64,000 nucleotides of DNA from positions 21,415 through 85,414 of the forward strand of contig CAKPGR010000002.1 of NCBI GenBank assembly GCA_934155005.1. The letters are read 5' to 3'. Position 1 is the stretch's first letter, and every line of letters starts with the position of its first letter. The position numbers and the translations under genes are program-made. The stretch is from an uncultured Bacilli bacterium (lineage in GTDB: Bacteria > Bacillota_I > Bacilli_A > RF39 > UBA660). Under the pieces are notes generated by a model. That model had not been told where the DNA came from. It ran no database searches and saw only the letters and a list, made by a program, of their open reading frames with translations. Below are positions 1-61,026 of the stretch, one piece after another.

Positions 1-890
1 CCATCAAAGGCAGGAAATGGAATTAAATTAATAATTGCTACATTAATACATAAATAAGCAATTAAATAAATGATATTAATAATACCAGCACTTGCAGCGC
101 TTCCAACTACATTAAAAATACCAAGTGGTCCAGATAAATTGTCTAATCCAAGTTTACCTGTTATTAAATATAATAGGATTTTACCCATTTGACATATCAA
201 ATTTTTAGTTTGAATAAAAGCATACTCTATTGATGGTATGATACCTTTTTCTGTATCATTTGATAAAGAAAAACCATATGAATATCCTTCTACACCATTT
301 CTTTCAACTAAAATAGGTTTTACCGCAACTACTTCCCTATTACCATTTTGATGTTCGACTTCTAAATTAATAATCTCTCCACTATTAACAGCTATTTCTA
401 AAACAAGCATTTCAGAAGAATTTACTTTTTTGGAATTTATTTTAGTTATTTTATCTCCAACTTTAATATTTTCAAGTTCTGAAATAGGATAATTTTCTTT
501 TTCAATATATGATATCTTAGTTGGATTAGTTGGTTTACCATTACAAAGTCCAACAATAAATAAGAAAATAATTGCTAGTAAGATATTAAACATAATTCCC
601 GCTATTAAAGTCATAAAACGCCATATCCAACTTTTATTACAAAGTTGTCTATCTTTTGGAACGTTTTCCCCATCTTCTAAATCCTCACCAGCCATACTAA
701 CAAAACCACCTATTGGAAATAGTCTAATTGAGTATTCTGTTTCATTTTTTTTCTTAGAAAAAATTTTAGGACCCATTCCTAAACAAAATTCATATACATA
801 TACACCTGCTTTTTTAGCAAATAGAAAATGGCCCAGTTCATGAACCATTATCGTTACACATAATACAATTATAAAATATATTAATGTCAT
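1..890 (-). CDS. rseP: RseP/RasP-type site-2 zinc metalloprotease (peptidase M50), C-terminal part runs off the window
   Basis: Absent from the ORF track because there is no stop in the window. My translation from ATG 890 gives MTLIYFIIVLCVTIMVHELGHFLFAKKAGVYVYEFCLGMGP, with HExxH in TM1. GGAGGGG SD lies 4 nt upstream. It follows cdsA directly, as in Bacillus. Confidence 0.8.
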   Translation of the reverse strand, partial: MTLIYFIIVLCVTIMVHELGHFLFAKKAGVYVYEFCLGMGPKIFSKKKNETEYSIRLFPIGGFVSMAGEDLEDGENVPKDRQLCNKSWIWRFMTLIAGIMFNILLAIIFLFIVGLCNGKPTNPTKISYIEKENYPISELENIKVGDKITKINSKKVNSSEMLVLEIAVNSGEIINLEVEHQNGNREVVAVKPILVERNGVEGYSYGFSLSNDTEKGIIPSIEYAFIQTKNLICQMGKILLYLITGKLGLDNLSGPLGIFNVVGSAASAGIINIIYLIAYLCINVAIINLIPFPAFD

Positions 891-900
891 AAAACCCCTC

Positions 901-1701
901 CTATAAAATTCCAATAAAGAATATAAATCCTAAGAGAACAAAAATAATACTATCAAGTCTATCTAATATACCACCATGACCTGGCATAATATTAGAGAAA
1001 TCTTTTTTACCAAAGTATCTTTTAATTGATGAAAATACTAAATCTCCAAGTTGTCCTAAAATAGATAAGAACAAAGTTACTGAAATGATTAACAATAAAT
1101 TGATGTAAGGATCAATTACCGTTATATAAAACATTGTAGCAATTAATGTACCAAAAACAGTACCGGCGATCATACCTTCCCAAGTCTTATTTGGAGAAAC
1201 ATCTTCAAGTAATTTATGTTTTCCTATTAACATTCCTATAATATAAGCATATGTATCAGTCATAATAGTTATTAAAAATAAATATATTATTAAATTTAAA
1301 TCCATATTTCTAATAACTATTAAAATAGAAAAACTAATTGCTAAAAAGAAAACACCACCAATTAAATAAAAAGCATCTGTAATACTATACTTACTTCTAT
1401 CATGATACAAAATAGCTGGTAATAGAAAAACTAAAAATAATGCTGATAAAATTCTATAATCAACCATAAATACCATCTTAGAAACATTTAGACTTGATAT
1501 TAATATAAGTGTTAAAATAATGTAAGATATAAAGCTAATAAAGCTAGGTATTTGTTTTTTAGTTTCTTTAACTTTTAAAAATTCTCTTAATCCTAAAAGG
1601 GCTAATGCTATTACTGCCAAATCAAAAATGATTCCACCAACATAAAATATAGGAACTAAAATTAGGAGTGCTACTACTGCACTTATTACTCTTTTTTTCA
1701 T
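901..1701 (-). CDS. cdsA: Phosphatidate cytidylyltransferase (CDP-diglyceride synthase)
   Basis: 266-aa polytopic protein with the C-terminal signature SPNKTWEG...GDLVFSSIKRYFGKKDFSNIMPGHGGILDRLDS. Confidence 0.9.
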   Translation of the reverse strand: MKKRVISAVVALLILVPIFYVGGIIFDLAVIALALLGLREFLKVKETKKQIPSFISFISYIILTLILISSLNVSKMVFMVDYRILSALFLVFLLPAILYHDRSKYSITDAFYLIGGVFFLAISFSILIVIRNMDLNLIIYLFLITIMTDTYAYIIGMLIGKHKLLEDVSPNKTWEGMIAGTVFGTLIATMFYITVIDPYINLLLIISVTLFLSILGQLGDLVFSSIKRYFGKKDFSNIMPGHGGILDRLDSIIFVLLGFIFFIGIL

Positions 1702-1715
1702 AAAATCACTCTTTT

Positions 1716-1912
1716 CTAAATTTGATTTACTAAATCAATCATCATTCCATAAAATTTATAAGCATAAATAATAGAAAATACAACAATTAAAATAATGATA
1801 ATAATGTTAAATATGCTTCTTATTTTTTTATTTTTTTCTCTTTTTTCTAATATTTCAACTCTTTTTTTAACAAAATTATTTCTTGATTTAGTTTTTCAAT
1901 TTTCTCTTCCAT
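1716..1912 (-). pseudogene. Small coiled-coil plus single-TM ORF interrupted at an A7 run (frameshift or sequencing error)
   Basis: ATG 1912 reads MEEKIEKLNQEIILLKKELKY then stops. The adjacent frame continues KKRVEILEKREKNKKIRSIFNIIIIILIVVFSIIYAYKFYGMMIDLVNQI to a stop at 1716. One extra A in the run at 1862-1868 would fuse the two frames. Confidence 0.3.
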
Positions 1913-2007
1913 AAATCATCTACCCTATATATAGATTACCACAAAATATGTATAAAAGTAAAGAATAATACTATATAAATTTATAAATAAAACTAGAGAA
2001 TTCATCT

Positions 2008-2991
2008 CTAGTTTTCACCTTCTTTTAACATATTAGTTATAAAAATACCATAACCTTTTTTAGGATCCTCTACAACAACGTGTGTGACTGCACCAATAAT
2101 TAAATCATTTTGTAAAATTGGTGATCCACTCATTCCTTGAACTATCCCACCGGTTTTTTCTAATAATTCTTTATCAGTAACTTCAAATAAAATATTTTTA
2201 TTATTAGCATCTTTTTTCATAATTTTGATGATGTTAATATCATATTCTTTTATTTCATCTCCATCAATTACTGTAAGTATTTTGGCTGGTCCTGTTTTTA
2301 TTTCATCTGGATTTGCTACTTTTTTTAGTTCTTTATTTGGTAAACTATTTGTATACTTTCCAAAAATACCACTAGATGTATTTTCTTTTATTGTACCTTC
2401 TTCGTCTTCTAAATTAATATTCGCATTTTTACTACCTGGATTTCCATTTTCACTTCTATCTATGGTTGTAACATTTGTTGATACAATCTTCCCATCTTTA
2501 ACCTCTAAAAGTAAACCAGAATTTGATTCTATGACTTCATGACCTAATGCACCATATATTAATGTTTTTGGATCTATATAACTAAGTGTTCCTATTCCTG
2601 TCACATTATCTTTTACATATAAACCTGTTTTTGAAACACCATCTTCTTTAATTAATTTTAATTTTGTTTCAAATTCTTTATCATTTCTTAAAGAAGTAAT
2701 TGAAGCTTCATTTTCAGATTTACTTATTTGATTTACAAGTTCATCAATATTTGTAACATCTACATTATTTACTTTCTTTATAATATCACCTGTTTTAAGT
2801 CCTGCTTCTATTGCAGGATTTTGGTTATTTATTTCATATGTTCCAACTATTAAAATACCTTTTGTATTAATACTGATACCAATATTTTCACCACCAGGTA
2901 TAATATATGAAGAATAAGCAAATATATTTATAGGAATTAAAGTTATTAAAAGAAGTAAGATTTTAAAGGATTTTTTAATTTTTAAAAACAT
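2008..2991 (-). CDS. spoIVB: SpoIVB-like sporulation signalling serine peptidase (S55) with PDZ domain
   Basis: PDZ-like AGLKTGDIIKKVN, catalytic-type GALGHEV and GMSGSPIL, N-terminal signal anchor. Start moved to ATG 2991 (AAAGGAG SD 8 nt upstream); the track start at 3033 looks like an extension. Confidence 0.8.
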   Translation of the reverse strand: MFLKIKKSFKILLLLITLIPINIFAYSSYIIPGGENIGISINTKGILIVGTYEINNQNPAIEAGLKTGDIIKKVNNVDVTNIDELVNQISKSENEASITSLRNDKEFETKLKLIKEDGVSKTGLYVKDNVTGIGTLSYIDPKTLIYGALGHEVIESNSGLLLEVKDGKIVSTNVTTIDRSENGNPGSKNANINLEDEEGTIKENTSSGIFGKYTNSLPNKELKKVANPDEIKTGPAKILTVIDGDEIKEYDINIIKIMKKDANNKNILFEVTDKELLEKTGGIVQGMSGSPILQNDLIIGAVTHVVVEDPKKGYGIFITNMLKEGEN

Positions 2992-3066
2992 TACATCGTC
3001 TCCTTTAAAACAGGCTACACTATTATTATTCAAATAAAAAAATAAAAAATACTTAAAAAAGTACTT

Positions 3067-3288
3067 TTATTCATCTATTTCAAATTTTTCTTCTAAACCA
3101 TTTTCTGAAACCATTTTGCTAACTTGTTCTTCTACATTTTTAAGTTCTGTATCACATTCATTTATAAGTTTCATAGCTTTAGTATATTTATTAATTGACT
3201 CTTCTAAATCAATTTCGCCATTTTCAAGAGAATCAATTATTTCATTTAATTCATTCATTTTATCTTCAAATTTAATTTTCTTTTCCAT
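3067..3288 (-). CDS. xseB: Exodeoxyribonuclease VII small subunit
   Basis: About 73 aa, helical, with LNEIIDSLENGEIDLEESINKYTKAMKL. It follows and overlaps xseA. ATG 3288 has an AGGTGA SD 5 nt upstream; the track used GTG 3297. Confidence 0.85.
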   Translation of the reverse strand: MEKKIKFEDKMNELNEIIDSLENGEIDLEESINKYTKAMKLINECDTELKNVEEQVSKMVSENGLEEKFEIDE

Positions 3289-4555
3289 AACTTTCACCTA
3301 CCACTTCATTAACTGTTACTTTTAAATTACCATCCCTAAATCTAATTTTTAATTTGTCATCTATTTTAATATTTTTTACTGATTTTATAATTTCTTCATT
3401 TTTATAACTTAAACTATATCCTTTTTTTAGTAAAGATAAAGGATTTAATAGTTCTAATTTTTCAATTATGACTTTTAAATTATCAAAATATTTTTGATAT
3501 AGTATTTTAGGATTATTTATAATATAGTTCTTTTTATAAATATCTAAGTTCATTTTTTCTTTTTCGATTTTTTTAGAAAGAATATTTTTTATTTTTTCTA
3601 ATGCTATATCTAGTTGTTGTTTTTTATTATTAAACATTAACATTGGATTTTTTATAACAAATGAATTTTTTAATGCTTCTATCTCTAATTTTTTATATTT
3701 TATTTTTTTAATAATTCCTTCATTTAATCTAATTTTAAATTGATCAAATGTATTCTTTAAATCAACAATATTAGGTACAGCCATTTCAGCAGCTCCTGTT
3801 GGTGTTGGAGCTCTAAGATCAGATACAAAATCAATTATTGTATAATCTATCTCATGACCAACAGCACTTATAATAGGCGTTTTGGCATTAAAAATAGTTC
3901 TTGCTAGTTCTTCATTATTAAAGCAATTCATATCTTCAAAAGAACCACCACCACGACCAACAATTAAAACATCTAAATTGTAATCATCTGCTTGTTTTAC
4001 TTTATTTATAATATCAATACTCGCATTTTCACCCTGAACTAAGCATGGAAATAAATAAGTTTCACATAAAGGAAATCTCCTTCTTATTGTTGATATTATA
4101 TCTTTTACAGCAGCTCCTGTCTTAGCTGTAACAATTCCAACTTTTTCTGGAATTTTTGGTATTTCTTTTTTATATTTTTGATCAAATAAACCTTCTTTTT
4201 TTAATTTTTCTTTTAACTGTTCAAAGGCAACATATAAATTACCTACACCATCTTCTAATAAATCTTCAACATATATTTGATAATTACCACTTAAAGGATA
4301 TACTCCTATACTTCCAGTTATTAATACTTTCATTCCTTCTGTTGGCACAAAAGATAATTTCTGAGCATTTCCTCTAAACATAATTGCTCTTATAACACTA
4401 TTTTCATCTTTTATAGAAAAATAGTAATGTCCTGTTGAATGAGCTTTAAAATTAGATATTTCACCTTTTAAATAAATTTTTTTTAGATTTATATCTGATT
4501 CTAGCTTAAATTTTAAATATTTTGTTAAAGCTGTTACAGTTAAATATTTATCCAT
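3272..4555 (-). CDS. xseA: Exodeoxyribonuclease VII large subunit
   Basis: 427 aa. N-terminal OB fold (GEISNFKAHSTGHYYFSIKD), catalytic core (GRGGGSFEDM) and a long C-terminal coiled coil. Confidence 0.9.
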   Translation of the reverse strand: MDKYLTVTALTKYLKFKLESDINLKKIYLKGEISNFKAHSTGHYYFSIKDENSVIRAIMFRGNAQKLSFVPTEGMKVLITGSIGVYPLSGNYQIYVEDLLEDGVGNLYVAFEQLKEKLKKEGLFDQKYKKEIPKIPEKVGIVTAKTGAAVKDIISTIRRRFPLCETYLFPCLVQGENASIDIINKVKQADDYNLDVLIVGRGGGSFEDMNCFNNEELARTIFNAKTPIISAVGHEIDYTIIDFVSDLRAPTPTGAAEMAVPNIVDLKNTFDQFKIRLNEGIIKKIKYKKLEIEALKNSFVIKNPMLMFNNKKQQLDIALEKIKNILSKKIEKEKMNLDIYKKNYIINNPKILYQKYFDNLKVIIEKLELLNPLSLLKKGYSLSYKNEEIIKSVKNIKIDDKLKIRFRDGNLKVTVNEVVGESYGKEN

Positions 4556-4563
4556 ATTTACAC

Positions 4564-4965
4564 CTACTTATTATGATATACTTTATCTAGTACGCCATTT
4601 ATCATATTTTTAACTGAATCATCACTATATAATTTAGCAAGTTCTACTGCCTCATTTATACAAACAATATCAGGAGTATCTGTATAAATAAGTTCATATA
4701 TTCCTATCTCTAAAATAGCCTTATCAGTATTTCCTAATCTATCTATTGTCCAATTATCTAAATATTTATTAGCAAGAGAGTCAATATCATTTTGATATGT
4801 AACAACCCCATATACTAAATCTTTTACAAATTCATTTTCTATTTCCATGACTTCTTTTATTATATTATTTATATCATATTCCATTTTATTACTTTTATAA
4901 ACATTTATTTGATAAAGAATTGTCATTGCTTTTTTTCTAAGTTCACTTCTATTTAATTGTTCCAC
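4564..4965 (-). CDS. nusB: Transcription antitermination factor NusB
   Basis: 133 aa with RSELRKKAMTILYQ...INEAVELAKLY. nusB-xseA-xseB order matches other Firmicutes. GTG start with a GGTGA SD. Confidence 0.85.
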   Translation of the reverse strand: MEQLNRSELRKKAMTILYQINVYKSNKMEYDINNIIKEVMEIENEFVKDLVYGVVTYQNDIDSLANKYLDNWTIDRLGNTDKAILEIGIYELIYTDTPDIVCINEAVELAKLYSDDSVKNMINGVLDKVYHNK

Positions 4966-5048
4966 CTTAAATCACCTTATTTGATTATAACATAATTAAA
5001 ATTTTTTATAAAGACATCTTGATAAGAAAAAAAGATTAGTTTCCTAAT

Positions 5049-5591
5049 CTATACAGTCATTAATTCTTTTTCTTTTTCTTTTGCTTTTTCATCTACTATT
5101 TTATTATATTTATTTATTAATTCTTGAACTTCATTTTGAACATCTTTTACTTCATCTTCTGTGATTTCAAGCTTTTTAGCGTCACTATTAGCTTCTTGTC
5201 TAATATTTCTTAAAGCAATTTTTGCTTCTTCAGCAATACTTTTTGCTTGTTTAACATATTCTTTTCTTGTTTCTTCTGTTAAAGCTGGAATATTTAATAT
5301 GATAACTTCACCATTATTATTTGGCGTTAATCCAATATTAGCTTCATAAATCGCTTTTTCTATTAAACTAATTGATGATTTATCAAATGGTTTTATTTGA
5401 AGCATTCTAGCTTCTGGAATAGAAATTGTAGCTAATTGAACAAGTGGTGTTGGAACACCATAATATGAAACATTAACTTTATCTAAAATAGCTGGATTAG
5501 CTCTTCCTGCTCTAATATTTGTAAGTCTTTTTTCTAAATTAGTTATTGTGTTTTGCATTTTTTCTTCTGTTGTAATTAAAATATCATCCAT
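5049..5591 (-). CDS. frr: Ribosome recycling factor
   Basis: LTNIRAGRANPAILDKVNVSYYGVPTPLVQLATISIPEARML. The second ATG (5591) is preferred because GGAGAG abuts the first ATG (5597). Confidence 0.93.
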   Translation of the reverse strand: MDDILITTEEKMQNTITNLEKRLTNIRAGRANPAILDKVNVSYYGVPTPLVQLATISIPEARMLQIKPFDKSSISLIEKAIYEANIGLTPNNNGEVIILNIPALTEETRKEYVKQAKSIAEEAKIALRNIRQEANSDAKKLEITEDEVKDVQNEVQELINKYNKIVDEKAKEKEKELMTV

Positions 5592-5655
5592 CTTCATCTC
5601 TCCTTATTAATATTATAATATATCAATATTAATTATTCAAGAATAAAATTATATA

Positions 5656-6486
5656 TCATTTAATTCTTTTATACATATAAACTGTTATATATGGATTTTG
5701 CACTGAAAAAGACGTTCCATTACAATTTGTACATGCTGTTGTTGATAAAGTTGTTCCAGTAAAAGTACTTGTAACTTTTCCGCTTGGTGTATAATAGTGT
5801 TGATGGTTACCTGGATTATCAGTATATACATTATCCTTAGCAGAATAACCACCTCCAAACCAAGGACCCCAATGTTGTGAACTTAAGTCGCTAACATACA
5901 TTCCTAAGCCTGATTCAAGGCGATAATTATAGCCATCATATTCACCACCGTATATTCTATGTGTATGACCTCCACTTCCTTCTGTTAAAGCTCTATTTCC
6001 ACTAAAACTAGAACTAATATTTCCTTTTGGTGTATATGTATGACTGTGACTTGGAAGATTTGAAGTTGTAAGTGTTGTTGTACTACTTCCTCCTGTCTTA
6101 CTTACTGTGTTAAAATTAGTATTACTTGTGTCTACTCCAACTAATGTCTTTCCTGTTCCATATGCTTCCCATGTCCCACCAAATTTTTTAGCTATATCAT
6201 TAGCTGTTGTTATATTCGTTGAAAGATATATACTTCCAACAGGGTACATTTCATTTAACATATCGCTTTTTAATGAATTAATTTCTTTTTTTAATTCATC
6301 ATATTTATCAGCTATACTATATAGTTCATCTAGTGAATTTTGAAGTGTTGCATCACTTCCTAAATTAGATCCTGTTGGAGCATTTACTGATATTCCATTT
6401 GCATAAAAATTACTTCCTGCATATACTCCAACACTTCCAAATATTAGTCCACCTATTATTATTCCTAGTATTATCTTTTTATTCAT
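5656..6486 (-). CDS. Family member 1: Sec-signal N-module (A) plus tail-fibre-like C-module (T) with three HxH motifs
   Basis: MNKKIILGIIIGGLIFGSVGVYA signal, SNLGSDATLQNSLDELYS motif, YPVGSIY...GGTWEAYGTGKTLVG...LPSHSHTY, GHTHRIY, NHQHYY, ending QNPYITVYMYKRIK. Preceded by the poly-G leader cassette. Confidence 0.75.
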   Translation of the reverse strand: MNKKIILGIIIGGLIFGSVGVYAGSNFYANGISVNAPTGSNLGSDATLQNSLDELYSIADKYDELKKEINSLKSDMLNEMYPVGSIYLSTNITTANDIAKKFGGTWEAYGTGKTLVGVDTSNTNFNTVSKTGGSSTTTLTTSNLPSHSHTYTPKGNISSSFSGNRALTEGSGGHTHRIYGGEYDGYNYRLESGLGMYVSDLSSQHWGPWFGGGYSAKDNVYTDNPGNHQHYYTPSGKVTSTFTGTTLSTTACTNCNGTSFSVQNPYITVYMYKRIK

Positions 6487-6619
6487 TTTTATCTACTCCT
6501 TTACACAAAAAAAAGAGGGTTTTATACCCCCCCCCGACTTTGAAATTTTTTTATCTCTCAGTCAATATTATTATTTTGCTTTACATACCCATTTTAACAA
6601 ATATCTTTTATTTTTTCAA
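6487..6619 (-). promoter_or_regulatory. Poly-G leader cassette, copy 1 (promoter plus ~95-nt 5' leader)
   Basis: -35 TTGAAA at 6614-6619, 17-nt spacer, extended -10 TGTTAAAAT (-10 at 6591-6596), invariant core, C9 (+ strand) at 6527-6535, GAGGG/loop/C-run hairpin plus U8, AAGGAG SD, ATG 6486. Confidence 0.7.
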
Positions 6620-6671
6620 TATGCCTAATAATATTACTCTACTTATATTATTAAATAAAATTTTATAACTT

Positions 6672-9011
6672 CTAATCTTGCCACTTAAAGTTTCTTATTT
6701 CCTCTAAATCTTGTCCATATTCTCTAATATATTCTTTATGCTCAACTAATTTATCTTTACATAATTGATATAAACTTGAAGATTTATCTTCTAAACAATC
6801 TAAATATTTTAAAGCATCCATTACTAAGTGAAATCTATCTAATTCATTTTGAACACGCATATCAAATGGTGTTGTAATTGTTCCTTCTTCTTTATATCCA
6901 TGTACATGTAAATCTTTATTTGTTCTTTTATAAGTTAATTGATGTATCAAGCTAGCATAACCATGGAACGCAAATATTATTGGTTTATCTTTTGTAAAAA
7001 TAGCATCATAATCAGAATCAGTAAGTCCATGTGGATGTTTTATATTAGATTCTAGTCGCATTAAATCAACTACATTTACAACTCTAATTTTTAGTTCAGG
7101 AAAATATGTTCTTAACATTTTAGTTGCAGCCAATGTTTCAAGAGTTGGCGTATCACCACAACAAGCCATAACAATATCTGGTTCTACACCTTCATCATTA
7201 CTTGCCCATGACCAAATACCAATTCCCTCTGTACAATGTTTAATTGCTTCATCCATAGTAAGCCATTGTGGTCTTGGATGTTTTGAAGCTACTATAACAT
7301 TTATATAATTTTTAGATTTAATACAGTGATTAAAACAAGATATCAAACAATTAGCATCTGGTGGTAAATAAATACGTGTTATATCAGCTTTCTTTGTAAC
7401 TAAATGATTTAAGAATCCTGGATCTTGATGAGTATAACCATTATGATCTTGTTGCCAAATATGAGATGTTAAAACATAGTTCAAAGAAGCTATTGGTCTT
7501 CTCCAAGAAAGTTCTTTTGTAACTTTTAACCACTTAGCATGTTGACTAGCCATTGAATCAACAATTCTAACAAAAGCTTCATAACTATGTAAAAATCCAT
7601 GCCTTCCAGTAAGAAGATATCCTTCTAATGCCCCTTCACAAACGTGTTCTGATAAAATAGAATCAATTACCCTTCCATCAGGAGATAAAAATTCATCATT
7701 ATTATCAGTTTGTAAAACCCATTTTCTATTAGTATCTTCAAAAATATGATTCAATCTATTGGATAGTGCTTCATCTGGTCCAAATATTCTAAAATTATCT
7801 GGATTTTCCTTAATTATATCTCTTACAAAAGCTCCAAGTTCTATCATATCTTGAGCTTCAGTATCACCTTTCACTTCAACTTTAACACCATAATTTTTAA
7901 AATCTGGAATTCTAAGTTCTTTTAAAAGCATTCCACCATTTGCATGCATATTAGAACCCATTCTTCTATTTTTGCTTGGAACAAATTCTTTATACTCGTC
8001 TTTTAATTTACCTGTCTCATCAAATAATTCTTCTGGATGATAACTCAACATCCAATCTTCTAATGCTTTTAAAGACTCTTCTGTAACCGTAATTGGAACT
8101 TGATGAGCTCTAAAACTTCCCTCAATTTTCTTACCATCTTGTTCTTTGGGACCTGTCCAACCTTTTGGTGTTCTAAGAACAACCATTGGCCATAATTGTC
8201 TTTGATAATTAGGTTCTTTTGCTTTTTCTTTCATTTCTTTTAATTTTAAAACAATTTGATCTAAGACTGTTGCCATAACTTCATGCATAGTAACTGGATC
8301 ATTACCTTCCACATAATAAGGTAGCCAACCATTTCCTTTTAATAAACAGTCTAATTCAGCCTTAGAAATCCTTGATAATATTGTTGGATTAGATATTTTG
8401 AATCCATTTAAATGAAGAATTGGTAAAATTGTACCATCTGTTTTAGGATTTAAAAATTTATTAACATGCCAAGAAGTAGCAAGCGGACCTGTTTCAGCTT
8501 CACCATCACCTACAACAGTCGCTACAATTAAATCAGGGTTATCTAAGGCGGCACCTAAAGCATGCGAAAGACTATAGCCAAGCTCTCCACCCTCATTAAT
8601 TGATCCTGGTGTTTCAGGTGCGACATGACTACTAATACCACCTGGGAAACTAAATTGTTTAAATAATTTTTTTAATCCCTCTTCATCTTCTGTTATATTT
8701 GGATATACTTCGCTATAGGTTCCTTCCAAATATGTATTTGCAACAATAGCATTACCACCATGTCCTGGTCCCGAAATATAAATCATATCTAAATCATATT
8801 TTTTGATTATTCTATTTAAATGTGTATATATAAAATTTTGACCTGGTACTGTCCCCCAGTGTCCAACTACATTAGGTTTTATATCCTTTAAACTAAGTGG
8901 CCTTTTTAAAAGAGGGTTATCTAATAAATATAATTGTCCCACTGATAAATAGTTACATGCTCTAAAATAACCATCTAAACTCTTTACTTCTTTTTCTGTT
9001 AAAGTACTCAC
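6672..9011 (-). CDS. xfp: Xylulose-5-phosphate/fructose-6-phosphate phosphoketolase
   Basis: About 780 aa with [28 protein letters not shown] and a TPP-binding [12 protein letters not shown] 9011 (AGGGGA SD 7 nt upstream) is preferred over the track's TTG 9038. Confidence 0.93.
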
Positions 9012-9200
9012 TATCCCATCCCCTATTCTTAAAAACAATTATACACTATTTTTTTTAATAATGAAATAAAAAAGAACAAATAAAATTATTATCTATTTGT
9101 CTACACTCTGAATAACTATACTATTTTTGATATACAAAAACTTTTATTTTTAAATTAATAATAATCATACTTTATTATTTTGTTCTTTTCATGCTTATTT

Positions 9201-9231
9201 AAAAAAATATTGAAACTAAGTCAATATTTTT
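9201..9231 (-). terminator. AT-rich hairpin terminator after family member 2, overlapping its stop codon
   Basis: Coding strand reads TAAAAAATATTGA-CTTAGTT-TCAATATTTTTTT, a 10-11 bp stem. The paralogous site at 31846-31871 carries a compensatory G/C swap. Confidence 0.5.
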
Positions 9232-10226
9232 TACTTTATTATTGATTTTGAGACTGTTATTACTGGACGAACACCGATACCAGTAAGGCTAACAGTACCG
9301 CTACCCAAACGACCGTCCTTACCCACACTCCACGCACTAGAAGAGTAGCTTATATTCGCATTACTTGTCCAATATCCCCATGTGTCTTGATCAGCATTAT
9401 TTAAACATCCATAGTCTTTACAGTCACTTCTTGTTCTATCATATAGCCAGCCATAATTACTTCTTTTACTTGTATCACTTTGATTACTACTTCCAAAATA
9501 AAACCATGGTTGCCCTATTTTACTTGCATCCCAATTTACATTATTTGATATTTTAGCCACTTCATTTGCTGTGATTAAACGAGCTGCATTTTTCCAGTCT
9601 TTTGTATCATTTTTTAACTGTGTAGCTACTTCTTTCATTTCACTATTACTTTCACTTGAATTCCATGCTACACGAGCTGTTGTATTATGGTCTAATATTA
9701 AATTAACGGATGAAGCCCCTTCTTCATCATTAAATGTATACCATTTCATACATCCACTCTTTGTTCCTGTTGAGCTTACTGATTCACTTTTACTACCTTT
9801 TTCTCCTGTTGTTGGATTATAGTATATAGCTGTTCCATTTTCATATTTCTTTTTTACACTTGATTTTATTGCTTTTCCATTTGTTACTATATAGTTATCA
9901 AACGTTAAATCATATCTTGTTACATTACCTTTACTTATTACTACAACTCCATTACTTGGAGTACTTCCTTTTACTGATATTCCTAAGCTTTTTAATTCTT
10001 CTACTGAATAAGCTCTATCTTTAAACTTACTTGCCGTTGTATCAACTTCATTTATCATTACTTGTTTTTCTATGGCATCTATATAACCTAAAGCTGATGA
10101 CTCTGCTGCTCCTTTTTTAGCTTTTTCTATTACTCCTAATATTGTTGGAGTTGCAATTAATACAATTATTGCTAGTATTACTATTACAGCTAGTAGTTCT
10201 ATTAAAGTAAAACCTTTTTTATTCAT
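9231..10226 (-). CDS. Family member 2: prepilin-type N-module (B) plus DUF1566/Lcl-like Cys-containing C-module (D)
   Basis: MNKKG|FTLIELLAVIVILAII is a class III signal with Glu at +5. C-terminal part has YYNPTTGEK, GCMKWYTF, RLITANEVAKIS, SDCKDYGCLNN, GYWTSNA and GVRPVITVSKSIIK. Preceded by the cassette. Confidence 0.75.
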   Translation of the reverse strand: MNKKGFTLIELLAVIVILAIIVLIATPTILGVIEKAKKGAAESSALGYIDAIEKQVMINEVDTTASKFKDRAYSVEELKSLGISVKGSTPSNGVVVISKGNVTRYDLTFDNYIVTNGKAIKSSVKKKYENGTAIYYNPTTGEKGSKSESVSSTGTKSGCMKWYTFNDEEGASSVNLILDHNTTARVAWNSSESNSEMKEVATQLKNDTKDWKNAARLITANEVAKISNNVNWDASKIGQPWFYFGSSNQSDTSKRSNYGWLYDRTRSDCKDYGCLNNADQDTWGYWTSNANISYSSSAWSVGKDGRLGSGTVSLTGIGVRPVITVSKSIIK

Positions 10227-10359
10227 TTTATCATTCCTTCCTATACAAAAAAAGAGGGTTTTGTACCCCCCCCCCGACTTTGAAATTTTTTTATCTCTCA
10301 GTCAATACTATTATTTTGTTTTACATACTCATTTTAACAAATTAACTATTTTTTTTCAA
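10227..10359 (-). promoter_or_regulatory. Poly-G leader cassette, copy 2
   Basis: -35 TTGAAA at 10354-10359, 17-nt spacer, -10 TAAAAT at 10331-10336, core with one substitution (CAATACTATT), C10 at 10266-10275, GGAAGGA SD, ATG 10226. Confidence 0.7.
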
Positions 10360-10383
10360 GTACTTAATTAGGTTATAAATTTT

Positions 10384-11310
10384 TTAATTTTCTAATATGA
10401 ACATTTCAAGTCCTAATTTCTTATCTACTTTGCCACTTTTTATATTGTAATCTAAATCAGCTAATTTTGATAAATTATTAATTAATTCTTCTAATGTAAA
10501 ATTATTACTTTTAGCAAGTGCTAGTTCAATTGGATATTTTTTTTTGCCTAAAATATTTATCATATCATATATTGACATTCTTTTATTTTTTAGTACTTTT
10601 ACTTGGTATATTAGACGATATTGATTAGCTAGCATAACAATAATTTTAATAGGTTCTTCCCCTCTTTTTATCATTTCATAATAACTTTCTAATGCTTTTT
10701 CTTTATTTTTATTAATAATGTTTTCAATTAAATGAAATATATCAATATCAATAGACTTAACAGTTACATTTATAATATCTTCTCTTGTTATATCGTAATT
10801 TTTATTTTTATATATTTTAAGTTTATTAATTTCTTGTTCTAAAATATATAAATTATCTCCCACTCGATCAATTAAAAAATTAATATCATTCATATTTATT
10901 TTATAATTTCCAAACATGTCTAATACTTCTTTTTGAATATTTGTTTTATTACAATTGATTAATTTTCCTTGTTTTTCCATTAAACTAACTATTTTTTTTC
11001 TACTATCTAGCTTTTCTTCATTACAAATAAATATAATTATATTTTCTGATTTTTCAGTTAAATATTTTTCTAATATTTTAGTATCTTGCTTAGGTTTATT
11101 AGTTGCGCTTGTAAAAATGTAACTATTATTGATAATTGTTATTCTATTATTTGAAAATAAAGATATTGTAAAAGCATCGTCTAATATATTTTTTAAATTT
11201 GATTCCATTAAATCATATTCATTGATATTATACGTTTCAATCTTTTCTGTTATTTTTTTAATATTTTTTTTTATTAAATATTCATCTGTTCCATATAGCA
11301 AATAAAACAT
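10384..11310 (-). CDS. holA: DNA polymerase III delta subunit
   Basis: 308 aa with the N-terminal MFYLLYGTDEYLI typical of HolA, and matching length and architecture. Confidence 0.7.
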   Translation of the reverse strand: MFYLLYGTDEYLIKKNIKKITEKIETYNINEYDLMESNLKNILDDAFTISLFSNNRITIINNSYIFTSATNKPKQDTKILEKYLTEKSENIIIFICNEEKLDSRKKIVSLMEKQGKLINCNKTNIQKEVLDMFGNYKINMNDINFLIDRVGDNLYILEQEINKLKIYKNKNYDITREDIINVTVKSIDIDIFHLIENIINKNKEKALESYYEMIKRGEEPIKIIVMLANQYRLIYQVKVLKNKRMSIYDMINILGKKKYPIELALAKSNNFTLEELINNLSKLADLDYNIKSGKVDKKLGLEMFILEN

Positions 11311-11356
11311 ACTATCACCAAAATAATTATATCAAAAATAGGATAATTTATCTATC

Positions 11357-12754
11357 CTATTTTTTTATTTGAAAATAAAATTTTGTACCTTTATTTTTTA
11401 TTGATTCTACACCATAATTAAAATCATGCATAATAAAGATATTTTTAACTATTGAAAGTCCAAGTCCTGTTCCAACCATATTTCTTTTATGTTTTTTATC
11501 AACTCTGTAATACTTATCCCATATTAAATCTAATTTATCTTTATCTATTCCTTTACCATGATCTATAACTTCAACTTGATAGTAAGTATTATTGTCTATT
11601 AAATTAACAATAACTTTCTTATCATCACCAATATAGTTAGTTGCGTTTCCTATCAAATTATATATAACTTGCCCTATTTTTAGTTTATCAGCTTTTATTA
11701 TGGCTTTTGTACCATTATAAATTATTTTATAATTCATCGTTTCTTCTAAATCAGAAAAACGTTTTGCTACTGTTTCTATTAATTCATTTAAATCGAATTC
11801 TTCTATTTTTAATTCAACAACATTTGATTGAATTTTTGATAATTCAAGAATATCATTTACTAGTAAATTCAAACGATCTGTTTCATCTATGATAGTATTT
11901 AAATTATCATTTCTTTTTTCTTTATTATCATAAGTTAAATCTCTAACCATTTCCGCATAAGCTTTTATCATTGTAAGTGGTGTTTTTAAATCATGAGAAA
12001 CATTAGCTAGAAGTTCTTTTCTAAGTTCATCGGTTTTAGCAAGCTCAGTATTAGCGTCATTTAATGTTTTAGCAAGAGAATTTAATTCATCTATATCTGT
12101 TTTAGGATCAAATTTGATATCATGTCTTCCTTTTGCCATTAATTTAGCTGTATTATTTAATCTAACAATAGGTGATGATATATATTTAGAAATATAATAG
12201 GAAAGTAAAAATGATAAAACAAAAACACCTATTGTAACATAAATTAATTGTCCCGCTAATATTTTAATTGTAGAATTAAGAGGCTCTAGTGATGTATTTA
12301 CTATAACAAAATAATCATCATCTAATTTTAAACCATACATTATAATTTTATTACCTAATTCTCTATTTCTAAGTTTATAAATTGTTTTGTTTGTTGTACT
12401 ATTTATAAGTTCTTCTTTATATTTTAAATAAGAAACATTATTATTTTTACTAATGCATCCACCATTTACGTTATTAGAAGAATATATTTCACTACCTTTA
12501 TAAATTAGATCTATACAAATACCTTGCTTATATGTTATTGAATTAAATAAATCCTCTAAGGAATCATTTTCTTTATACTTTTTAAATACTTGTTTAGCCA
12601 CTTCACTAACTTCATGAGTTTTGACTAATTCATAATAACCATTTAAAAATATAACTTGAAAAAACCATAAGAAAACTAAGATAGCTAATGAAAACATTAT
12701 CATATATAACCATATTTTGTTTCCTAAGCTATTTTTATTTAATTTATATCTCAA
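11357..12754 (-). CDS. Sensor histidine kinase (two TM segments, HAMP, HisKA, HATPase_c)
   Basis: H box LLANVSHDLKTPLT, N box NLIGNATNY, G boxes DHGKGI and GTGLGLSIVK. Overlaps the upstream response regulator by 11 nt. The TTG start is uncertain; ATG 12703 is the alternative. Confidence 0.85.
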   Translation of the reverse strand: MRYKLNKNSLGNKIWLYMIMFSLAILVFLWFFQVIFLNGYYELVKTHEVSEVAKQVFKKYKENDSLEDLFNSITYKQGICIDLIYKGSEIYSSNNVNGGCISKNNNVSYLKYKEELINSTTNKTIYKLRNRELGNKIIMYGLKLDDDYFVIVNTSLEPLNSTIKILAGQLIYVTIGVFVLSFLLSYYISKYISSPIVRLNNTAKLMAKGRHDIKFDPKTDIDELNSLAKTLNDANTELAKTDELRKELLANVSHDLKTPLTMIKAYAEMVRDLTYDNKEKRNDNLNTIIDETDRLNLLVNDILELSKIQSNVVELKIEEFDLNELIETVAKRFSDLEETMNYKIIYNGTKAIIKADKLKIGQVIYNLIGNATNYIGDDKKVIVNLIDNNTYYQVEVIDHGKGIDKDKLDLIWDKYYRVDKKHKRNMVGTGLGLSIVKNIFIMHDFNYGVESIKNKGTKFYFQIKK

Positions 12755-13406
12755 ATTTATATCCTACTGCTCTAACAGTAACAATTAAATTACGATATTT
12801 TCCAAGATTATTTCTAAGCATTTTTATATGAGTATCAATTGTTCTATCATCACCAAAAAAATCATATCCCCAAATATTGCTTAAAAGTTGTTCTCTTGTT
12901 AAGGCAATATTTTTGTTTTTAACAAAGTAAACTAATAAATCGTATTCTTTTGGTGTTAATTTTAAAATTTTATCTTCTATTTTTACATTGTGAGCTTTAA
13001 AATCAATAACTAAATCTTCATATTTAAATATATCATTTGATGTTTTATTTTCTCTCTTTAAAACAGCTTTAATACGCGCTACTAACTCTTTTGGACTGAA
13101 TGGTTTAGTAACATAATCATCTATCCCTAAATCAAATCCTACTAGTTTATCAAACTCTTCAGTACGAGCTGATAATACAATAATTGGTATATCTTTAATT
13201 TTTTTAATTTCTTTACAAGCAGAAAATCCATCTAATTTTGGCATCATTATATCCATAATAATTAAATCAATATCATCATTAAATTTAACAAAGTCAATTG
13301 CTTGTTCCCCATTTTCAGCTTCAATACAAGTGTATGATTCATTTTCTAAATATTCTTTAATAACATTTCTAATCATTATTTCGTCATCAACAATTAAAAT
13401 TTTCAT
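12744..13406 (-). CDS. OmpR-family response regulator
   Basis: Receiver domain MKILIVDDE...DLIIMDIMMPKLDG...KPF, plus a winged-helix C-terminus ending RTIDTHIKMLRNNLG...VRAVGYKFEI. Confidence 0.9.
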   Translation of the reverse strand: MKILIVDDEIMIRNVIKEYLENESYTCIEAENGEQAIDFVKFNDDIDLIIMDIMMPKLDGFSACKEIKKIKDIPIIVLSARTEEFDKLVGFDLGIDDYVTKPFSPKELVARIKAVLKRENKTSNDIFKYEDLVIDFKAHNVKIEDKILKLTPKEYDLLVYFVKNKNIALTREQLLSNIWGYDFFGDDRTIDTHIKMLRNNLGKYRNLIVTVRAVGYKFEI

Positions 13407-13439
13407 AATATCACATCCTTTAAGTATTCTAAATTAATA

Positions 13440-14426
13440 TTATGTATTTTTTGTGAAATCATTAGAATACATAATTTTATTATCATTTGTGTATATCATA
13501 ACTTCTACATTATCAAGTTTATTTACTTCTTTTATAACTTCACTAGGATTTTTCATAAATAAATATTTTGATAAATATAAAAAATAATTTTCATTAGTTG
13601 TAATAATCGTTATACTTTTCATATTGTTAACTAATTTCTTTTCTTTTGTATCAACTATTTTACTATAAATTTTGTTATTATATTTGTAATAATCAGAAGT
13701 ATTAATAGTTGAAATATATTTATTTTTAACATTTATAGTTTTTAGTAGTTCGTTATTGTCAGGATTTATAGTAGCTACTTTATATTTACCATTTGTTTTA
13801 CTTCCAACAATAGATTCATTATCACAAGATATATAGTAGTATTTTATATCATTTTTATCTAATATTTTTTTTATTTCATTTAATATATATGGTGTTTTAA
13901 TATAATCTAAATTAATATTCATATAATTATTATTTATCTTTTTGTCTTTTATTTCAATATTATCTATTGTTTGATTATCTGCTAGCGAGATTTCTATATC
14001 ACTTGGATAACCTGTATTTATAGTAAAATATTCATCAAATAAATCATATAAATTTCCTTTGCTTATATCAATTTTTCCATTTGTTTTATCATATATTTCT
14101 AAGCCTTTATCAATCATATTTACTAATTCTTTATCTAATTTTAACTCTTTATTTTGTAAAAAATTATGTCTTATATAATATAAATTATTAATTCCTTCAT
14201 ATTCGTTTTTGGTATCAGTTAATTTTTCATATTTATTAATTAAAGTTTCTATTTTATTAAATATGGAATCTATATTTTTATTAGTAGTTATTTTAACTGT
14301 TATATTTTTATTTAAATAACTAAATTGTTTTACTTGTTCTTTTTTTACAAAAATAATTTTCATTATAAAAAGAAAAGTTAATAATATTAAGATAGAATAT
14401 ATTACTATATTTAGCTTTTTTTGCAT
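13440..14426 (-). CDS. Hypothetical N-terminally anchored extracytoplasmic protein
   Basis: Single N-terminal TM (IVIYSILILLTFLFIMKIIF), Asn/Lys-rich, no motif recognised. Located downstream of the two-component system. Confidence 0.5.
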   Translation of the reverse strand: MQKKLNIVIYSILILLTFLFIMKIIFVKKEQVKQFSYLNKNITVKITTNKNIDSIFNKIETLINKYEKLTDTKNEYEGINNLYYIRHNFLQNKELKLDKELVNMIDKGLEIYDKTNGKIDISKGNLYDLFDEYFTINTGYPSDIEISLADNQTIDNIEIKDKKINNNYMNINLDYIKTPYILNEIKKILDKNDIKYYYISCDNESIVGSKTNGKYKVATINPDNNELLKTINVKNKYISTINTSDYYKYNNKIYSKIVDTKEKKLVNNMKSITIITTNENYFLYLSKYLFMKNPSEVIKEVNKLDNVEVMIYTNDNKIMYSNDFTKNT

Positions 14427-14471
14427 TTAAATCACCTATCTATATTATATCAAAAAAAAGCCTATTTGGCT

Positions 14472-15473
14472 TTATTTCATTAAATTTTTATATATGTCAA
14501 TTAATTTTTTACCAACTATTTTTGTATCTTTGGAAGTAGCTTTTTTATATCCTTGTTCTTTTAGGCTTTTCTTTTTACCATTTAGAATATCTTTTATTAA
14601 TATTTCAAATTCATCTACATCTTTTGCTTTATATACTTCTTCATCTTTTATAAATTCTTCAAAGACAGGAATATCTCTAACTAATGTTGGTATTTTTGCT
14701 ATTAAAGCTTCTAATATTGGGATACCTTCTGTTTCTTCAAGTGTTGGAAACAAATATAAGTCACTTCCGCTATATGCTTTTCTTATAAAACTTTGATCTA
14801 CATATCCAGCAAATATTAAATTATCTAATTTAGTATTTACAGCATCTTTTATTTCTTTTGGAACTAGATTTAAATCAAGATAACCGAACCATATAAATTT
14901 ATATTCTGGCATTCTTTTTGCAAGTTCAACAAAATCTAAAATTCCTTTTCTTTTTAAATATAAACCTACACCCATAATAACTTTTTCATTATCTTTAAAA
15001 CCATATTTTTTTCTAAATTCACGAGCAAATTCGTCATTATGTTCAAAATATTCAGTATCAATTCCATTTGATATAGCGTATATTGGTCTATTTAAATTAT
15101 AATTTTCAAGTAATCTTTTAGAATATTCAGTTGGTGTTATTATAACATCCCCTAGTTTATAACATTTAGATATCCACCATTTAAAAAGTGGCGCTACTGC
15201 ATTGGAAAATTTAAAAGAATTTTTAAAATCTTCTTCTGTTGAATGAGCATGATATACAACTTTCTTTCCTAATCTCTTAGCCTTTTTAGCGAGAAAATAA
15301 CTCTTAAGTAAATACCAATTTATATGAACAATATCAACATTTTTAATTTCCTTAGGATCTAATGTATATTCAACATTATTTCTCTCTAAAGCATTTATTT
15401 GATGTTTAACAGCTTTACCTAACCCTGACTTTCCAACAGTTTTAAGTCCTTCTGTATATAATAATACCTTCAT
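14472..15473 (-). CDS. GT-B (family 4-like) glycosyltransferase, possibly a glycolipid synthase
   Basis: MKVLLYTEG...GLGKAV N-terminus and an EX7E-type motif (PTLEETEGIPILEAL). Start set at ATG 15473 (AAAGGTGA SD); the track start at 15518 is an extension. Confidence 0.7.
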   Translation of the reverse strand: MKVLLYTEGLKTVGKSGLGKAVKHQINALERNNVEYTLDPKEIKNVDIVHINWYLLKSYFLAKKAKRLGKKVVYHAHSTEEDFKNSFKFSNAVAPLFKWWISKCYKLGDVIITPTEYSKRLLENYNLNRPIYAISNGIDTEYFEHNDEFAREFRKKYGFKDNEKVIMGVGLYLKRKGILDFVELAKRMPEYKFIWFGYLDLNLVPKEIKDAVNTKLDNLIFAGYVDQSFIRKAYSGSDLYLFPTLEETEGIPILEALIAKIPTLVRDIPVFEEFIKDEEVYKAKDVDEFEILIKDILNGKKKSLKEQGYKKATSKDTKIVGKKLIDIYKNLMK

Positions 15474-15501
15474 TTTATCACCTTTAAGAATTATATCATA
15501 T

Positions 15502-15723
15502 CTAAATTGTATTAACAAGAATTACATCTTTGCCTATTTTTCTTACTTGACGCCAGGCAATTTCAATTATATTTTGATTTGCAAAAAAATTAAATCTACT
15601 TTTTTGAACAACTAATGATTTCATATTTCCATTATCATCTATAATTACATCTATAATATTGCCAATTTTCGTTCCATTTTCAATATCAACTATATCTTTA
15701 CTTTGTAAATCAGATAAACGCAT
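15502..15723 (-). CDS. ylmC: YlmC/YmxH-family PRC-barrel sporulation protein
   Basis: MRLSDLQSKDIVDIENGTKIGNIIDVIIDDNGNMKSLVV is the typical family N-terminus. ATG 15723 has a GGTGA SD; the track start at 15804 is an extension. Confidence 0.75.
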   Translation of the reverse strand: MRLSDLQSKDIVDIENGTKIGNIIDVIIDDNGNMKSLVVQKSRFNFFANQNIIEIAWRQVRKIGKDVILVNTI

Positions 15724-15763
15724 ACAATCACCTATATAATTATATTCATATTTATTATTAATT

Positions 15764-15959
15764 TTACGAATCTTTAATTTTAATAAAATGTTTATATATT
15801 CCAATATCTCCTATTGATCTAGTTAAAAAATTAATGAATATTAAACTACCACATACAATAATTGCATCTATACCAATAGAATTATTAAAAAAAATCAACA
15901 TTATCAGTTAAATTCATCAATATAAAACTTATAAGGATTGAAATAAAATCATTCATCAT
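15764..15959 (-). pseudogene. Small membrane-protein ORF interrupted at a T8 run (frameshift or sequencing error)
   Basis: ATG 15959/15956 reads MMNDFISILISFILMNLTDNVDFF then stops. The adjacent frame continues NNSIGIDAIIVCGSLIFINFLTRSIGDIGIYKHFIKIKDS to a stop at 15764. The run lies at 15887-15894; one base fewer would fuse the frames. Confidence 0.3.
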
Positions 15960-15988
15960 AACACCTATTTCTAATTATAAAAAAAATA

Positions 15989-16762: not shown

Positions 16763-16833
16763 ATATTCTCCTTTCTATCTAATTATGAATATAGATTGAA
16801 AAAATATTCAAAAAAAAGATGAATTTTTTTATT

Positions 16834-32865: not shown

Positions 32866-33001
32866 TCTATCATTCCTTTCAAAACATTAAAAAAAGAGGG
32901 TTTTTTACCCCCCCCCCGACTTTGAAATTTTTTTATCTCTCAGTCAATATTATTATTTTGTTTTACATACTTATTTTAACAAATTAATTTTATTTTGGCA
33001 A
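32866..33001 (-). promoter_or_regulatory. Poly-G leader cassette, copy 4
   Basis: -35 TTGCCA at 32996-33001, 17-nt spacer, -10 TAAAAT at 32973-32978, invariant core, C10 at 32908-32917, ATG 32865. Confidence 0.7.
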
Positions 33002-48716: not shown

Positions 48717-48848
48717 GTTATAACTCCTTTACACAAAAAAAGAAGGGTTTTTTACCCCCCCCCCGACTTTGAAATTTTTTTATCTCTCAGTCAATATTAT
48801 TATTTTGTTTTACATACTTATTTTAACAAATTAAATCTATTTTTTCAA
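48717..48848 (-). promoter_or_regulatory. Poly-G leader cassette, copy 5 (archetype)
   Basis: Coding strand: TTGAAA (48843-48848), 17 nt, TGTTAAAAT (-10 at 48820-48825), AAGTATGTAAAACAAAATAATAATATTGACTGAGAGATAAAAAAATTTCAAAGTC, G10 (48755-48764), TAAAAAACCCTTC, T7, GTGTAAAGGAG, ATG 48716. Confidence 0.72.
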
Positions 48849-60926: not shown

Positions 60927-61026
60927 ACCATTAATCCTTTCTACATACAAAAAAGAGAGGTTTTGTACCCCCCCCCCCGACTTTGAAATTTTTTTATCTC
61001 TCAGTCAATATTATTATTTAATTTTA
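60927..61026 (-). promoter_or_regulatory. Poly-G leader cassette, copy 6 (5'-shortened)
   Basis: Invariant core present, C11 at 60968-60978, stem variant CCTCTC. TAAAAT at 61021-61026 overlaps the yneF stop. There are 13 nt fewer between TAAAAT and TTGACT, and no -35 match. Confidence 0.6.

Follow-up and report, generated by a model that had tools for sequence, protein, structure and literature searches.

A repeated leader element with a poly-G hairpin arm upstream of a mosaic secreted-protein family in an uncultured Bacilli bacterium: a candidate slippage-prone leader terminator

Introduction

Promoters with a homopolymeric repeat in the spacer are known from Neisseria porA and opc (poly-G/C), Bordetella fim (poly-C), Treponema pallidum tpr (poly-G) and Mycoplasma hyorhinis vlp (poly-A). 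Here we describe a G homopolymer that lies downstream of the predicted promoter, in a leader element that occurs six times in a 64-kb stretch of DNA from an uncultured Bacilli bacterium (contig CAKPGR010000002.1, positions 21,415 to 85,414), to which we refer as the window. Each copy precedes a gene of one secreted-protein family and consists of a first hairpin (hairpin 1), a run of Gs predicted to pair across a short loop with a pyrimidine arm to form a second hairpin (hairpin 2), a U tract, a Shine-Dalgarno (SD) sequence and the start codon. We tentatively read this element as a leader terminator or insulator, one arm of which is prone to slippage.

The window tract shares with repeat-in-spacer promoters a homopolymer placed before surface-protein genes and a length polymorphism among strains, and a further architecture of the same family, P0089, has exactly such an anatomy. 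However, the only good promoter stands ~55 nt upstream of the window tract, and the TAnAAA sequence of the hairpin 2 loop has no -35 element at a usable distance. The T. pallidum tpr genes are mentioned in a passage of PMC7864442.

A heritable leader-terminator switch is described in the clostridial surface-protein gene cwpV of Clostridioides difficile, where a 9-bp stem with four G-C pairs and a poly-U tract, placed 60-70 nt after the start site, decides expression (PMC2784873). The likeness lies in a surface-protein gene of a gut clostridial organism and in a promoter upstream of the terminator element. In cwpV, however, RecV flips a DNA segment, making or destroying the stem, whereas the window element has no invertible repeat and it is the homopolymeric arm that varies; moreover, cwpV is one gene, and elements of the window type stand on dozens. 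In Helicobacter pylori, a variable G-repeat (6-16 G) within the tlpB-hp0102 5' untranslated region (UTR) provides graded control by the small RNA (sRNA) RepG (PMC8295292). There, too, a slippage-prone 5'-UTR G-repeat pairs with a C/U-rich RNA; in the window the pairing is predicted, and in cis. In H. pylori an sRNA acting in trans supplies the partner, its terminator loop, and regulation is post-transcriptional, whereas the window element has a cis partner with a U tract next to it in terminator geometry, occurs in another phylum, and serves a gene family rather than one operon. Finally, Bacillus subtilis pyrG is controlled by attenuation through reiterative transcription, in which low CTP leads to the addition of untemplated 5'-terminal Gs that prevent the terminator (Meng, Turnbough and Switzer 2004, as cited in PMC8812562). 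Pairing of poly-G with the C/U-rich strand of a leader terminator would decide termination in both systems, without a protein or a leader peptide; the window Gs, in contrast, are templated and internal and would form the terminator.

Leader terminators, repeat-based phase variation, heritable leader-terminator switches of the cwpV type and G-repeat pairing of the tlpB/RepG type are already known. Our literature search turned up no account in which a templated homopolymer forms one arm of the leader terminator throughout a large gene family, and the novelty suggested here rests on sequence anatomy.

Results

Anatomy and conservation of the leader element

All coordinates are those of the window, and the element reads on its minus strand (Table 1). 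The order of parts is common to all six copies: hairpin 1, G9-11, a UAnAAAA loop, a CCCUC-type arm, U6-8, SD and ATG. A core of 39 nt (TTGACTGAGAGATAAAAAAATTTCAAAGTCG9) occurs six times with no mismatch, where shuffled sequences lead us to expect no occurrence. The entire window holds six runs of at least seven G or C, all of them at these leaders, and the G run adjoins hairpin 1 directly, with no linker. Among the six copies the run measures 9, 10, 10, 10, 10 and 11 nt, the loop is UAUAAAA (one copy), UACAAAA (two), UUAAAAA (one) or UAAAAAA (two), and the 3' arm is CCCUC in three copies, CCCUUC in two and CCUCUC in one. Part of the U tract is able to form G.U pairs with surplus Gs.

An initial sequence-only reading of this DNA had pointed to a terminator-like hairpin and U tract in the leader of copy 1 and in its counterparts; the observation is confirmed on the minus strand in all six copies, and the loops and arm variants that it listed match the six-copy alignment. 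The U tract that it gave as 7-8 nt is real, but the range widens to 6-8, since the copy at 60949-60954 has U6. Hairpin 1 likewise exists, not as the 6-bp stem round a 20-nt loop then proposed but as a two-part stem with a loop of six As. Folding of the six leaders, which had been suggested as a check, gave minimum free energies (MFE) of -19 to -21.5 kcal/mol, with z-scores of -2.2 to -3.8 against shuffles.

A positionally conserved predicted promoter and a two-part hairpin 1

The comparative set comprised 25 unique copies, drawn from two lineages with proteins ~51% identical, that of the window (W) and a second one (L2). In both lineages a predicted promoter of sigma-A type (TTGnnA, 17 bp, TAnAAT, with a TG extension) lies 25-28 nt 5' of hairpin 1, and the distance from promoter end to G run is 54-55 nt in W and 65-69 nt in L2. 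Five of the six window copies have this promoter at the equivalent place, as do most copies in either lineage. Its -35 hexamer varies by copy (TTGAAA, TTGTAA, TTGCCA, TTGTCA, TTGTTA), as does its -10 hexamer (TAAAAT, TAGAAT, TACAAT, TATAAT, TAAGAT). That position is kept and sequence is not constitutes the best evidence available that the hairpins are transcribed as 5' UTR, in which both most likely sit. The terminator had initially been placed between promoter and SD, and a conserved predicted promoter upstream, together with a full terminator anatomy, is consistent with this placement. In copy 1, 25 nt of AU-rich sequence separate promoter and hairpin 1, and the start site is predicted ~18-20 nt 5' of hairpin 1. 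Three copies in all, including the window copy at 60949-61008, are devoid of a promoter, and each abuts an upstream stop codon.

Hairpin 1 of L2 (GUUUGC-nnnn-GGCAAA-loop-UUUGCC-nnnn-GCAAAC) is two-part like that of W and unrelated to it in sequence. Across 10 distinct L2 copies, 210 of 210 pair cells are standard, whereas slid controls reach 51-69%; one pair has changed on both sides (G-C to A-U), and every one-sided change is wobble-compatible on the sense strand. The short form found in L2 keeps the outer stem only, with the double change GUUUGA/UCAAAC in one, and an insertion variant has a different outer stem, GACUUG/CAAGUC. Most of the support for hairpin 1 comes from the comparison between the lineages.

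Two deviating forms of the hairpin deserve description. The L2 short forms (L015 9930-9975 and 15400-15445, with equivalents in L016) have neither inner stem nor promoter, stand directly after an upstream stop, and look like deletions between two GTTTGC repeats. At L007 9858-9945 a unique 88-nt insertion within hairpin 1 (G run at 9950) contains CCCCUCCC and a purine run. In the predicted fold CCCCUCCC pairs with the G run and the purine run with CCCUC-U8, so that the terminator hairpin would no longer function; the insertion resembles a naturally occurring internal antiterminator, and it has no relative in any locus examined.

Four other candidate signals were considered and rejected. The sequence TAATAT just 5' of hairpin 1, taken as a -10 element, would place the start within the conserved outer stem, and the -35 offsets of a sigma-B-like GGGTAT -10 are inconsistent between lineages. 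Sequestration of the SD by an anti-SD (CUCUUUU with AAAGGAG) can be drawn in four window copies and is lost with other SDs and in L2. In many MFE folds the A-rich 5' tail pairs with the U tract as an outer helix, but this helix is made of A-U pairs only, with partners that vary by copy, and we treated it as chance.

Hairpin 2 and its resemblance to intrinsic terminators

Hairpin 2 is the most conserved part of the element and consists of G8-11, UAnAAA(A), a pyrimidine arm and U6-8. Its arm is CCCUC, CCCUUC, CCUCUC, CCCCUC or CCUC, hence pyrimidines only, with changes restricted to exchanges of C and U that preserve pairing with G, and U6-8 stands directly 3' of the stem in every copy of both lineages. 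The hairpin has 9-10 pairs, four of them G-C, and a loop of 5-8 nt. The Lesnik criteria for intrinsic terminators, as quoted in PMC2784873, are a stem of 4-18 bp, at least four G-C pairs and a loop of 3-10 nt; nearly all 25 copies fall within these limits, and the copy with the CCUC arm offers three G-C pairs. Folded alone, hairpin 2 reaches -10 to -14 kcal/mol in 24 of the 25 unique copies and -8.3 kcal/mol in the CCUC-arm copy; compared with six native terminators of the window, it stands at -10 to -11.5 against -4 to -10.7 kcal/mol. A pattern scan of positions 1-20000 found 14 terminator-like sites where 2.8 were expected, and the hairpin 2 sites ranked best. By every sequence criterion, hairpin 2 is a predicted intrinsic terminator.

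The hairpins may nevertheless serve to stabilise or process the mRNA without terminating its synthesis, the variation in G length being neutral. An RNase would cut the AU-rich tail, the hairpins would block a 5' exonuclease, the pyrimidine/U tract would act as a ribosome standby or S1 site, and the G run would persist merely because any G pairs with C or U. The motif AUAAUAU just 5' of hairpin 1, which is kept even in promoter-less copies, is in line with such a role, as are the strong promoters and strong SDs, which suggest high expression, the promoter-less copies, which require read-through, and the small effect of G length on folding energy (see Discussion), which fits neutrality. We consider this alternative unlikely, since a hairpin above the strength of native terminators, followed by U6-8, is expected to terminate. 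Furthermore, a hypermutable G9-11 would hardly have been kept in a genome of 26% GC, in two lineages and a third architecture, if any arm sufficed, and with ~19 nt between it and the predicted 5' end, hairpin 1 could not shield that end unless the RNA were first processed.

Length variation of the G run and a third architecture

When ortholog flanks of 70 nt upstream and 45 nt downstream were compared, the G run differed in length in five of seven ortholog groups with identical flanks, ranging from 8 to 11 between samples. On this comparison we take the G run to be hypermutable. The polymorphism at orthologous sites (8-11) had not been used in the sequence-only reading. In the window copies, gain or loss of one G alters neither a reading frame (no open reading frame (ORF) passes through the tract) nor the spacing of -35 and -10 elements (no -35 is usable). 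Two contigs, L013 and L023, begin exactly at the G run (position 1), and such assembly breaks are consistent with length heterogeneity or with homopolymer sequencing trouble.

In P0089, of the same family, TTGACA-AAAAAGCTC-G(10 or 11)-TATACT is followed by a short leader with an SD. This promoter is seen at L021 9935-10000 and also in L022, L024 and L025, and L023 begins inside the run; L021 and L023 share samples with the L2 contigs L015 and L017. The cassette follows the terminator of the upstream gene, and its leader has no hairpin 1, CCCUC, U tract or upstream promoter. From its layout, P0089 would be a classic repeat-in-spacer promoter. The spacer is 19-20 bp as assembled, from which the gene would be predicted to be OFF in each of the four samples, and a spacer of 17 bp would need G8. 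This architecture suggests that the family uses poly-G as a contingency tract and raises the prior that the window tract, too, is kept for its mutability.

P0089 also bears on the possibility that the window element embeds a phase-variable promoter of its own, in which the G run is the spacer, the loop TAnAAA doubles as the -10, the start falls in or after CCCUC, and slippage switches the gene. As a corollary, transcripts from upstream would hold both arms and be terminated, and those from the embedded promoter would lack the G arm and pass. P0089 (L021-L025), which lacks hairpin 1, CCCUC and the U tract, is the textbook case; L2 offers TTGCCG, 9 nt, G(n) and TAYAAA (in the short forms TTGCTG at 9 nt or TTGACG at 8 nt); the loop, like a -10 element, is constant at T1, A2, A4 and A5 but not at position 3; and the promoter-less copies would acquire a promoter. 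However, W has no workable -35, for TTTCAA gives a spacer of 12-15 bp and TTGACT one of 35-38 bp, the putative -10 ends in A and never in T, the start would land in a pyrimidine-only stretch, and lineages with -35 offsets 5 nt apart show the same 8-11 range. The upstream promoter, the compensatory changes of hairpin 1, and the pyrimidine arm with its U tract would all be left unexplained. An embedded promoter is conceivable in L2 and not well supported in the window lineage, and overall it seems to us quite improbable. The initial claim that the sequence is a stem-loop rather than a -10 box therefore stands in part: the arms are kept and the third base of the loop varies, but the P0089 promoter revives the -10 interpretation, at least for L2.

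A start within the G run, as in pyrG, would use TTGACT-17-CAAAGT as promoter and begin at about the sixth G, the transcript carrying n-5 templated Gs plus any from reiterative initiation; runs of G9 or shorter would then hold too few Gs for the hairpin (ON), and runs of G10 or longer would complete the terminator (OFF). TTGACT matches the -35 consensus at five of six positions, CAAAGT keeps A2 and T6 at a spacing of 17 bp, the lengths 8-11 fall on either side of the 5-G threshold that a 5-bp stem sets, and reiterative initiation with poly-G/pyrimidine terminator pairing is known in B. subtilis pyrG (Meng et al. 2004, cited in PMC8812562). Yet CAAAGT is a weak -10, L2 has no -10-like hexamer near the G run (CCGAGAGCAAAC contains no T), so that the mechanism would not be common to both lineages, and the transcript would lose hairpin 1, whose pairing is under selection. 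We regard such a start as highly improbable.

Genes behind the element and their neighbours

All six downstream genes encode secreted proteins assembled from shuffled modules. There are two N-terminal types, one with a prepilin-type GFTLIELL motif (PF07963) and one with a signal-anchor and a conserved SNLGS-ATLQ segment, and at least three C-terminal types (Gp10_C, DUF6273-like, other). The mosaic make-up of the six proteins implies, as judged from their sequences, a shuffling of modules among paralogues. In the window lineage the element precedes every family gene found, and no other gene, and in ~300 kb of related loci all runs of at least seven Gs are on the sense strand and 5' of a family gene. 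Within the window, 6 of the 57 ORFs of at least 100 aa (~1 in 10) are preceded by the element. An ordinary AT-rich terminator stands 3' of each family gene, which makes each of them a monocistronic cassette. The upstream neighbours of the six copies are xfp, holA, a Fic gene, a DUF3048 gene, rpoC and gyrA (the last after a 71-aa ORF). No recognisable terminator precedes the leader behind four of the six (xfp, holA, Fic and DUF3048), exactly the genes for which this had been claimed at the outset, and rpoC carries its own terminator ahead of the leader.

A DNA-level function would make the leaders and their G runs sites of recombination or gene conversion that shuffle the N- and C-terminal modules. 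The mosaic proteins, with two N-terminal and at least three C-terminal modules, agree with this view, as do leaders that are 100% identical while coding regions are 50-80% identical, and short forms that resemble GTTTGC-repeat deletions. But the G.U-compatible changes on the sense strand, the positionally conserved promoter and the conserved SD distance indicate a role at the RNA level, and G9-11 is unable to form a canonical three-tetrad quadruplex; we give this explanation very little credence.

Copy 6 has no promoter and begins 15 nt past the stop of the 71-aa ORF. This ORF (61024-61236, minus strand), which separates gyrA from copy 6 and is absent from the ORF list, is preceded by an SD of its own, and its product is a small membrane protein. 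For the copy 6 gene, the program-made ORF list places the start at a TTG within the U tract (60950); the plausible start is the ATG at 60926 (MKKVLNLIKK), in agreement with the paralogues in L005 and L007. The window as a whole has ~26% GC, a uniformly negative GC skew and nearly every long ORF on the minus strand; strand bias and skew are consistent with a leading strand of the PolC-type Firmicute kind. At the Rfam gathering threshold the window contains only the L10 leader RF00557 (57297-57411, minus strand, 65 bits, before rplJ-rplL) and a tRNA (30712-30785, minus strand).

Table 1. Coordinates of the six leader copies and their genes in the 64-kb window
Copy	Feature	Coordinates	Strand	Details	Basis
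1	Predicted sigma-A promoter	6591..6619	-	TTGAAA 6619-6614, 17-bp spacer, TAAAAT 6596-6591, TG extension	
1	Hairpin 1	6536..6565	-	outer stem UGACU/AGUCG, 2x2 internal loop, inner stem GAGAU/AUUUC, A6 loop	folding and comparison with L2
1	Poly-G tract	6527..6535	-	G9; 5' arm of hairpin 2	
1	Hairpin 2 loop	6520..6526	-	UAUAAAA; consensus UAnAAA(A)	
1	Hairpin 2 pyrimidine 3' arm	6515..6519	-	CCCUC	
1	U tract	6507..6514	-	U8, directly 3' of hairpin 2 stem	
1	SD and start codon	6484..6502	-	GUGU after U8, then SD AAAGGAG 6502-6496, ATG 6486-6484	
1	Gene	5656-6486	-	276-aa secreted protein, Gp10_C domain	
2	Leader	10247..10359	-	promoter 10359-10331; hairpin 1 10305-10276; G10 10275-10266; loop, CCCUC and U7 10265-10247	
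2	Gene	9231-10226	-	prepilin-type N terminus	
3	Leader	26746..26858	-	promoter ~26858-26830; hairpin 1 26805-26776; G10 26775-26766; loop, CCCUUC and U7 26765-26746	
3	Gene	25919-26725	-		
4	Leader	32889..33001	-	promoter ~33001-32973; hairpin 1 32947-32918; G10 32917-32908; loop, CCCUC and U7 32907-32889	
4	Gene	31870-32865	-	prepilin-type	
5	Leader	48735..48848	-	promoter ~48848-48820; hairpin 1 48794-48765; G10 48764-48755; loop, CCCUUC and U7 48754-48735	
5	Gene	48144-48716	-	rpoC terminator just 5' of cassette	
6	Leader	60949..61008	-	hairpin 1 61008-60979; G11 60978-60968; loop, CCUCUC and U6 60967-60949	
6	Gene	60219-60926	-	ATG at 60926	

Distribution of the element

Scans of genome and metagenome collections with the core returned chance matches only (L001-L003), and viral scans returned nothing related to the element. 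A protein search with one family member found more than 3,000 homologues, and the contigs that encode them come from human gut metagenomes (Hadza and others). Their neighbour genes (SpoVG, YabP/Q, GerA, CotE/Z, Spo0A, SigE-type) and a GC content of 25-30% mark the source, on gene content and composition, as an uncultured spore-forming Firmicute. Per 20 kb, related contigs carry 1-4 copies of the element. Homologous genes in three other taxa (L009, L018, L019) have a plain leader with no G run, which suggests that the element is an innovation of this clade. An unrelated phage contig carries G8-TAAAAA-C5-T7 directly after its major capsid gene (L020 3047-3075), where a poly-G:poly-C hairpin with a U tract apparently serves as an ordinary 3' terminator.

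Discussion

The best reading of the element, which we hold with somewhat less than even confidence, is that of a leader terminator or insulator with a slippage-prone 5' arm. Each copy would be transcribed as a 5' leader and would belong to a self-contained expression cassette, one for each gene of a large, modular surface-protein family (secreted or pilin-like). The sigma-A promoter would start an RNA with an AU-rich tail of ~19 nt, followed by hairpin 1 and then by the G:CCCUC hairpin, which most likely halts a fraction of the transcripts that arrive from the cassette promoter or from upstream housekeeping genes. The remaining transcripts would read through and the surface protein would be translated, its output depending on read-through. 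The homopolymeric arm would slip, and its length would change heritably between cells and between loci. By G.U pairing, surplus Gs would let the stem reach into the U tract, which has to be drawn out of the hybrid for release, and by analogy with the tlpB G-repeat, tract length would probably tune read-through in small steps rather than on and off. This RNA-level reading fits both lineages. The sequences themselves show the anatomy, its conservation, the promoter position, the stability relative to native terminators and the tract polymorphism; that termination occurs, that it is partial and that it varies with tract length we infer.

Several points weigh against this reading. Each added G contributes only about -0.5 kcal/mol, and lengths of 8-11 would therefore give a rheostat at best and no obvious switch; homopolymer lengths from Illumina assemblies may in addition carry errors. 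P0089 uses G(n) and TATACT as spacer and -10 of a plain promoter, and the window-type loop keeps T1, A2, A4, A5 and A6, with position 3 varying, as a -10-like box would. Covariation in hairpin 1 of L2 is modest, with 42 of 500 shuffles reaching the observed score, because the copies are close relatives. Folding of the 25 unique copies revealed no competing antiterminator pairing in standard copies; no leader peptide was found, the frames of the window lineage all having stops 18-29 nt upstream and no start codon; and Rfam matched neither the leader at E<=10 nor the element at gathering threshold in the whole window. Finally, a strong promoter right before an efficient terminator would be wasteful unless read-through is substantial, and the three promoter-less copies would be silent if termination were efficient.

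The first reading had gone further in proposing conditional read-through through a shared trans-acting factor. We found no evidence for conditional read-through or for such a factor, no sRNA candidate having been sought, and neither antiterminator nor leader peptide; the absence of a competing antiterminator, which it had itself pointed out, holds for the standard copies. Overall, the attenuator interpretation is partly supported. A pyrimidine-tract-binding protein, such as a cold-shock protein, is presumably one candidate for a regulon-wide antiterminator.

A stronger form of the proposal, possible although doubtful, is a slippage-programmable attenuator, in which the templated poly-G arm is a contingency tract that heritably resets termination at many (possibly more than 100) cassettes, and in which the same family employs the tract elsewhere as promoter spacer, so that a single repeat module would serve two mechanistically different switches. 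If true, heritable variation in expression would here be generated by a homopolymer acting as a strand of a leader terminator, rather than as promoter spacer or within a reading frame, a mode undescribed so far. The tract also breaks assemblies, and the cassette, with its promoter, insulating hairpins and SD, would offer a compact natural expression module. The density of the element suggests surface variation on the scale of mycoplasma or Campylobacter, in a commensal.

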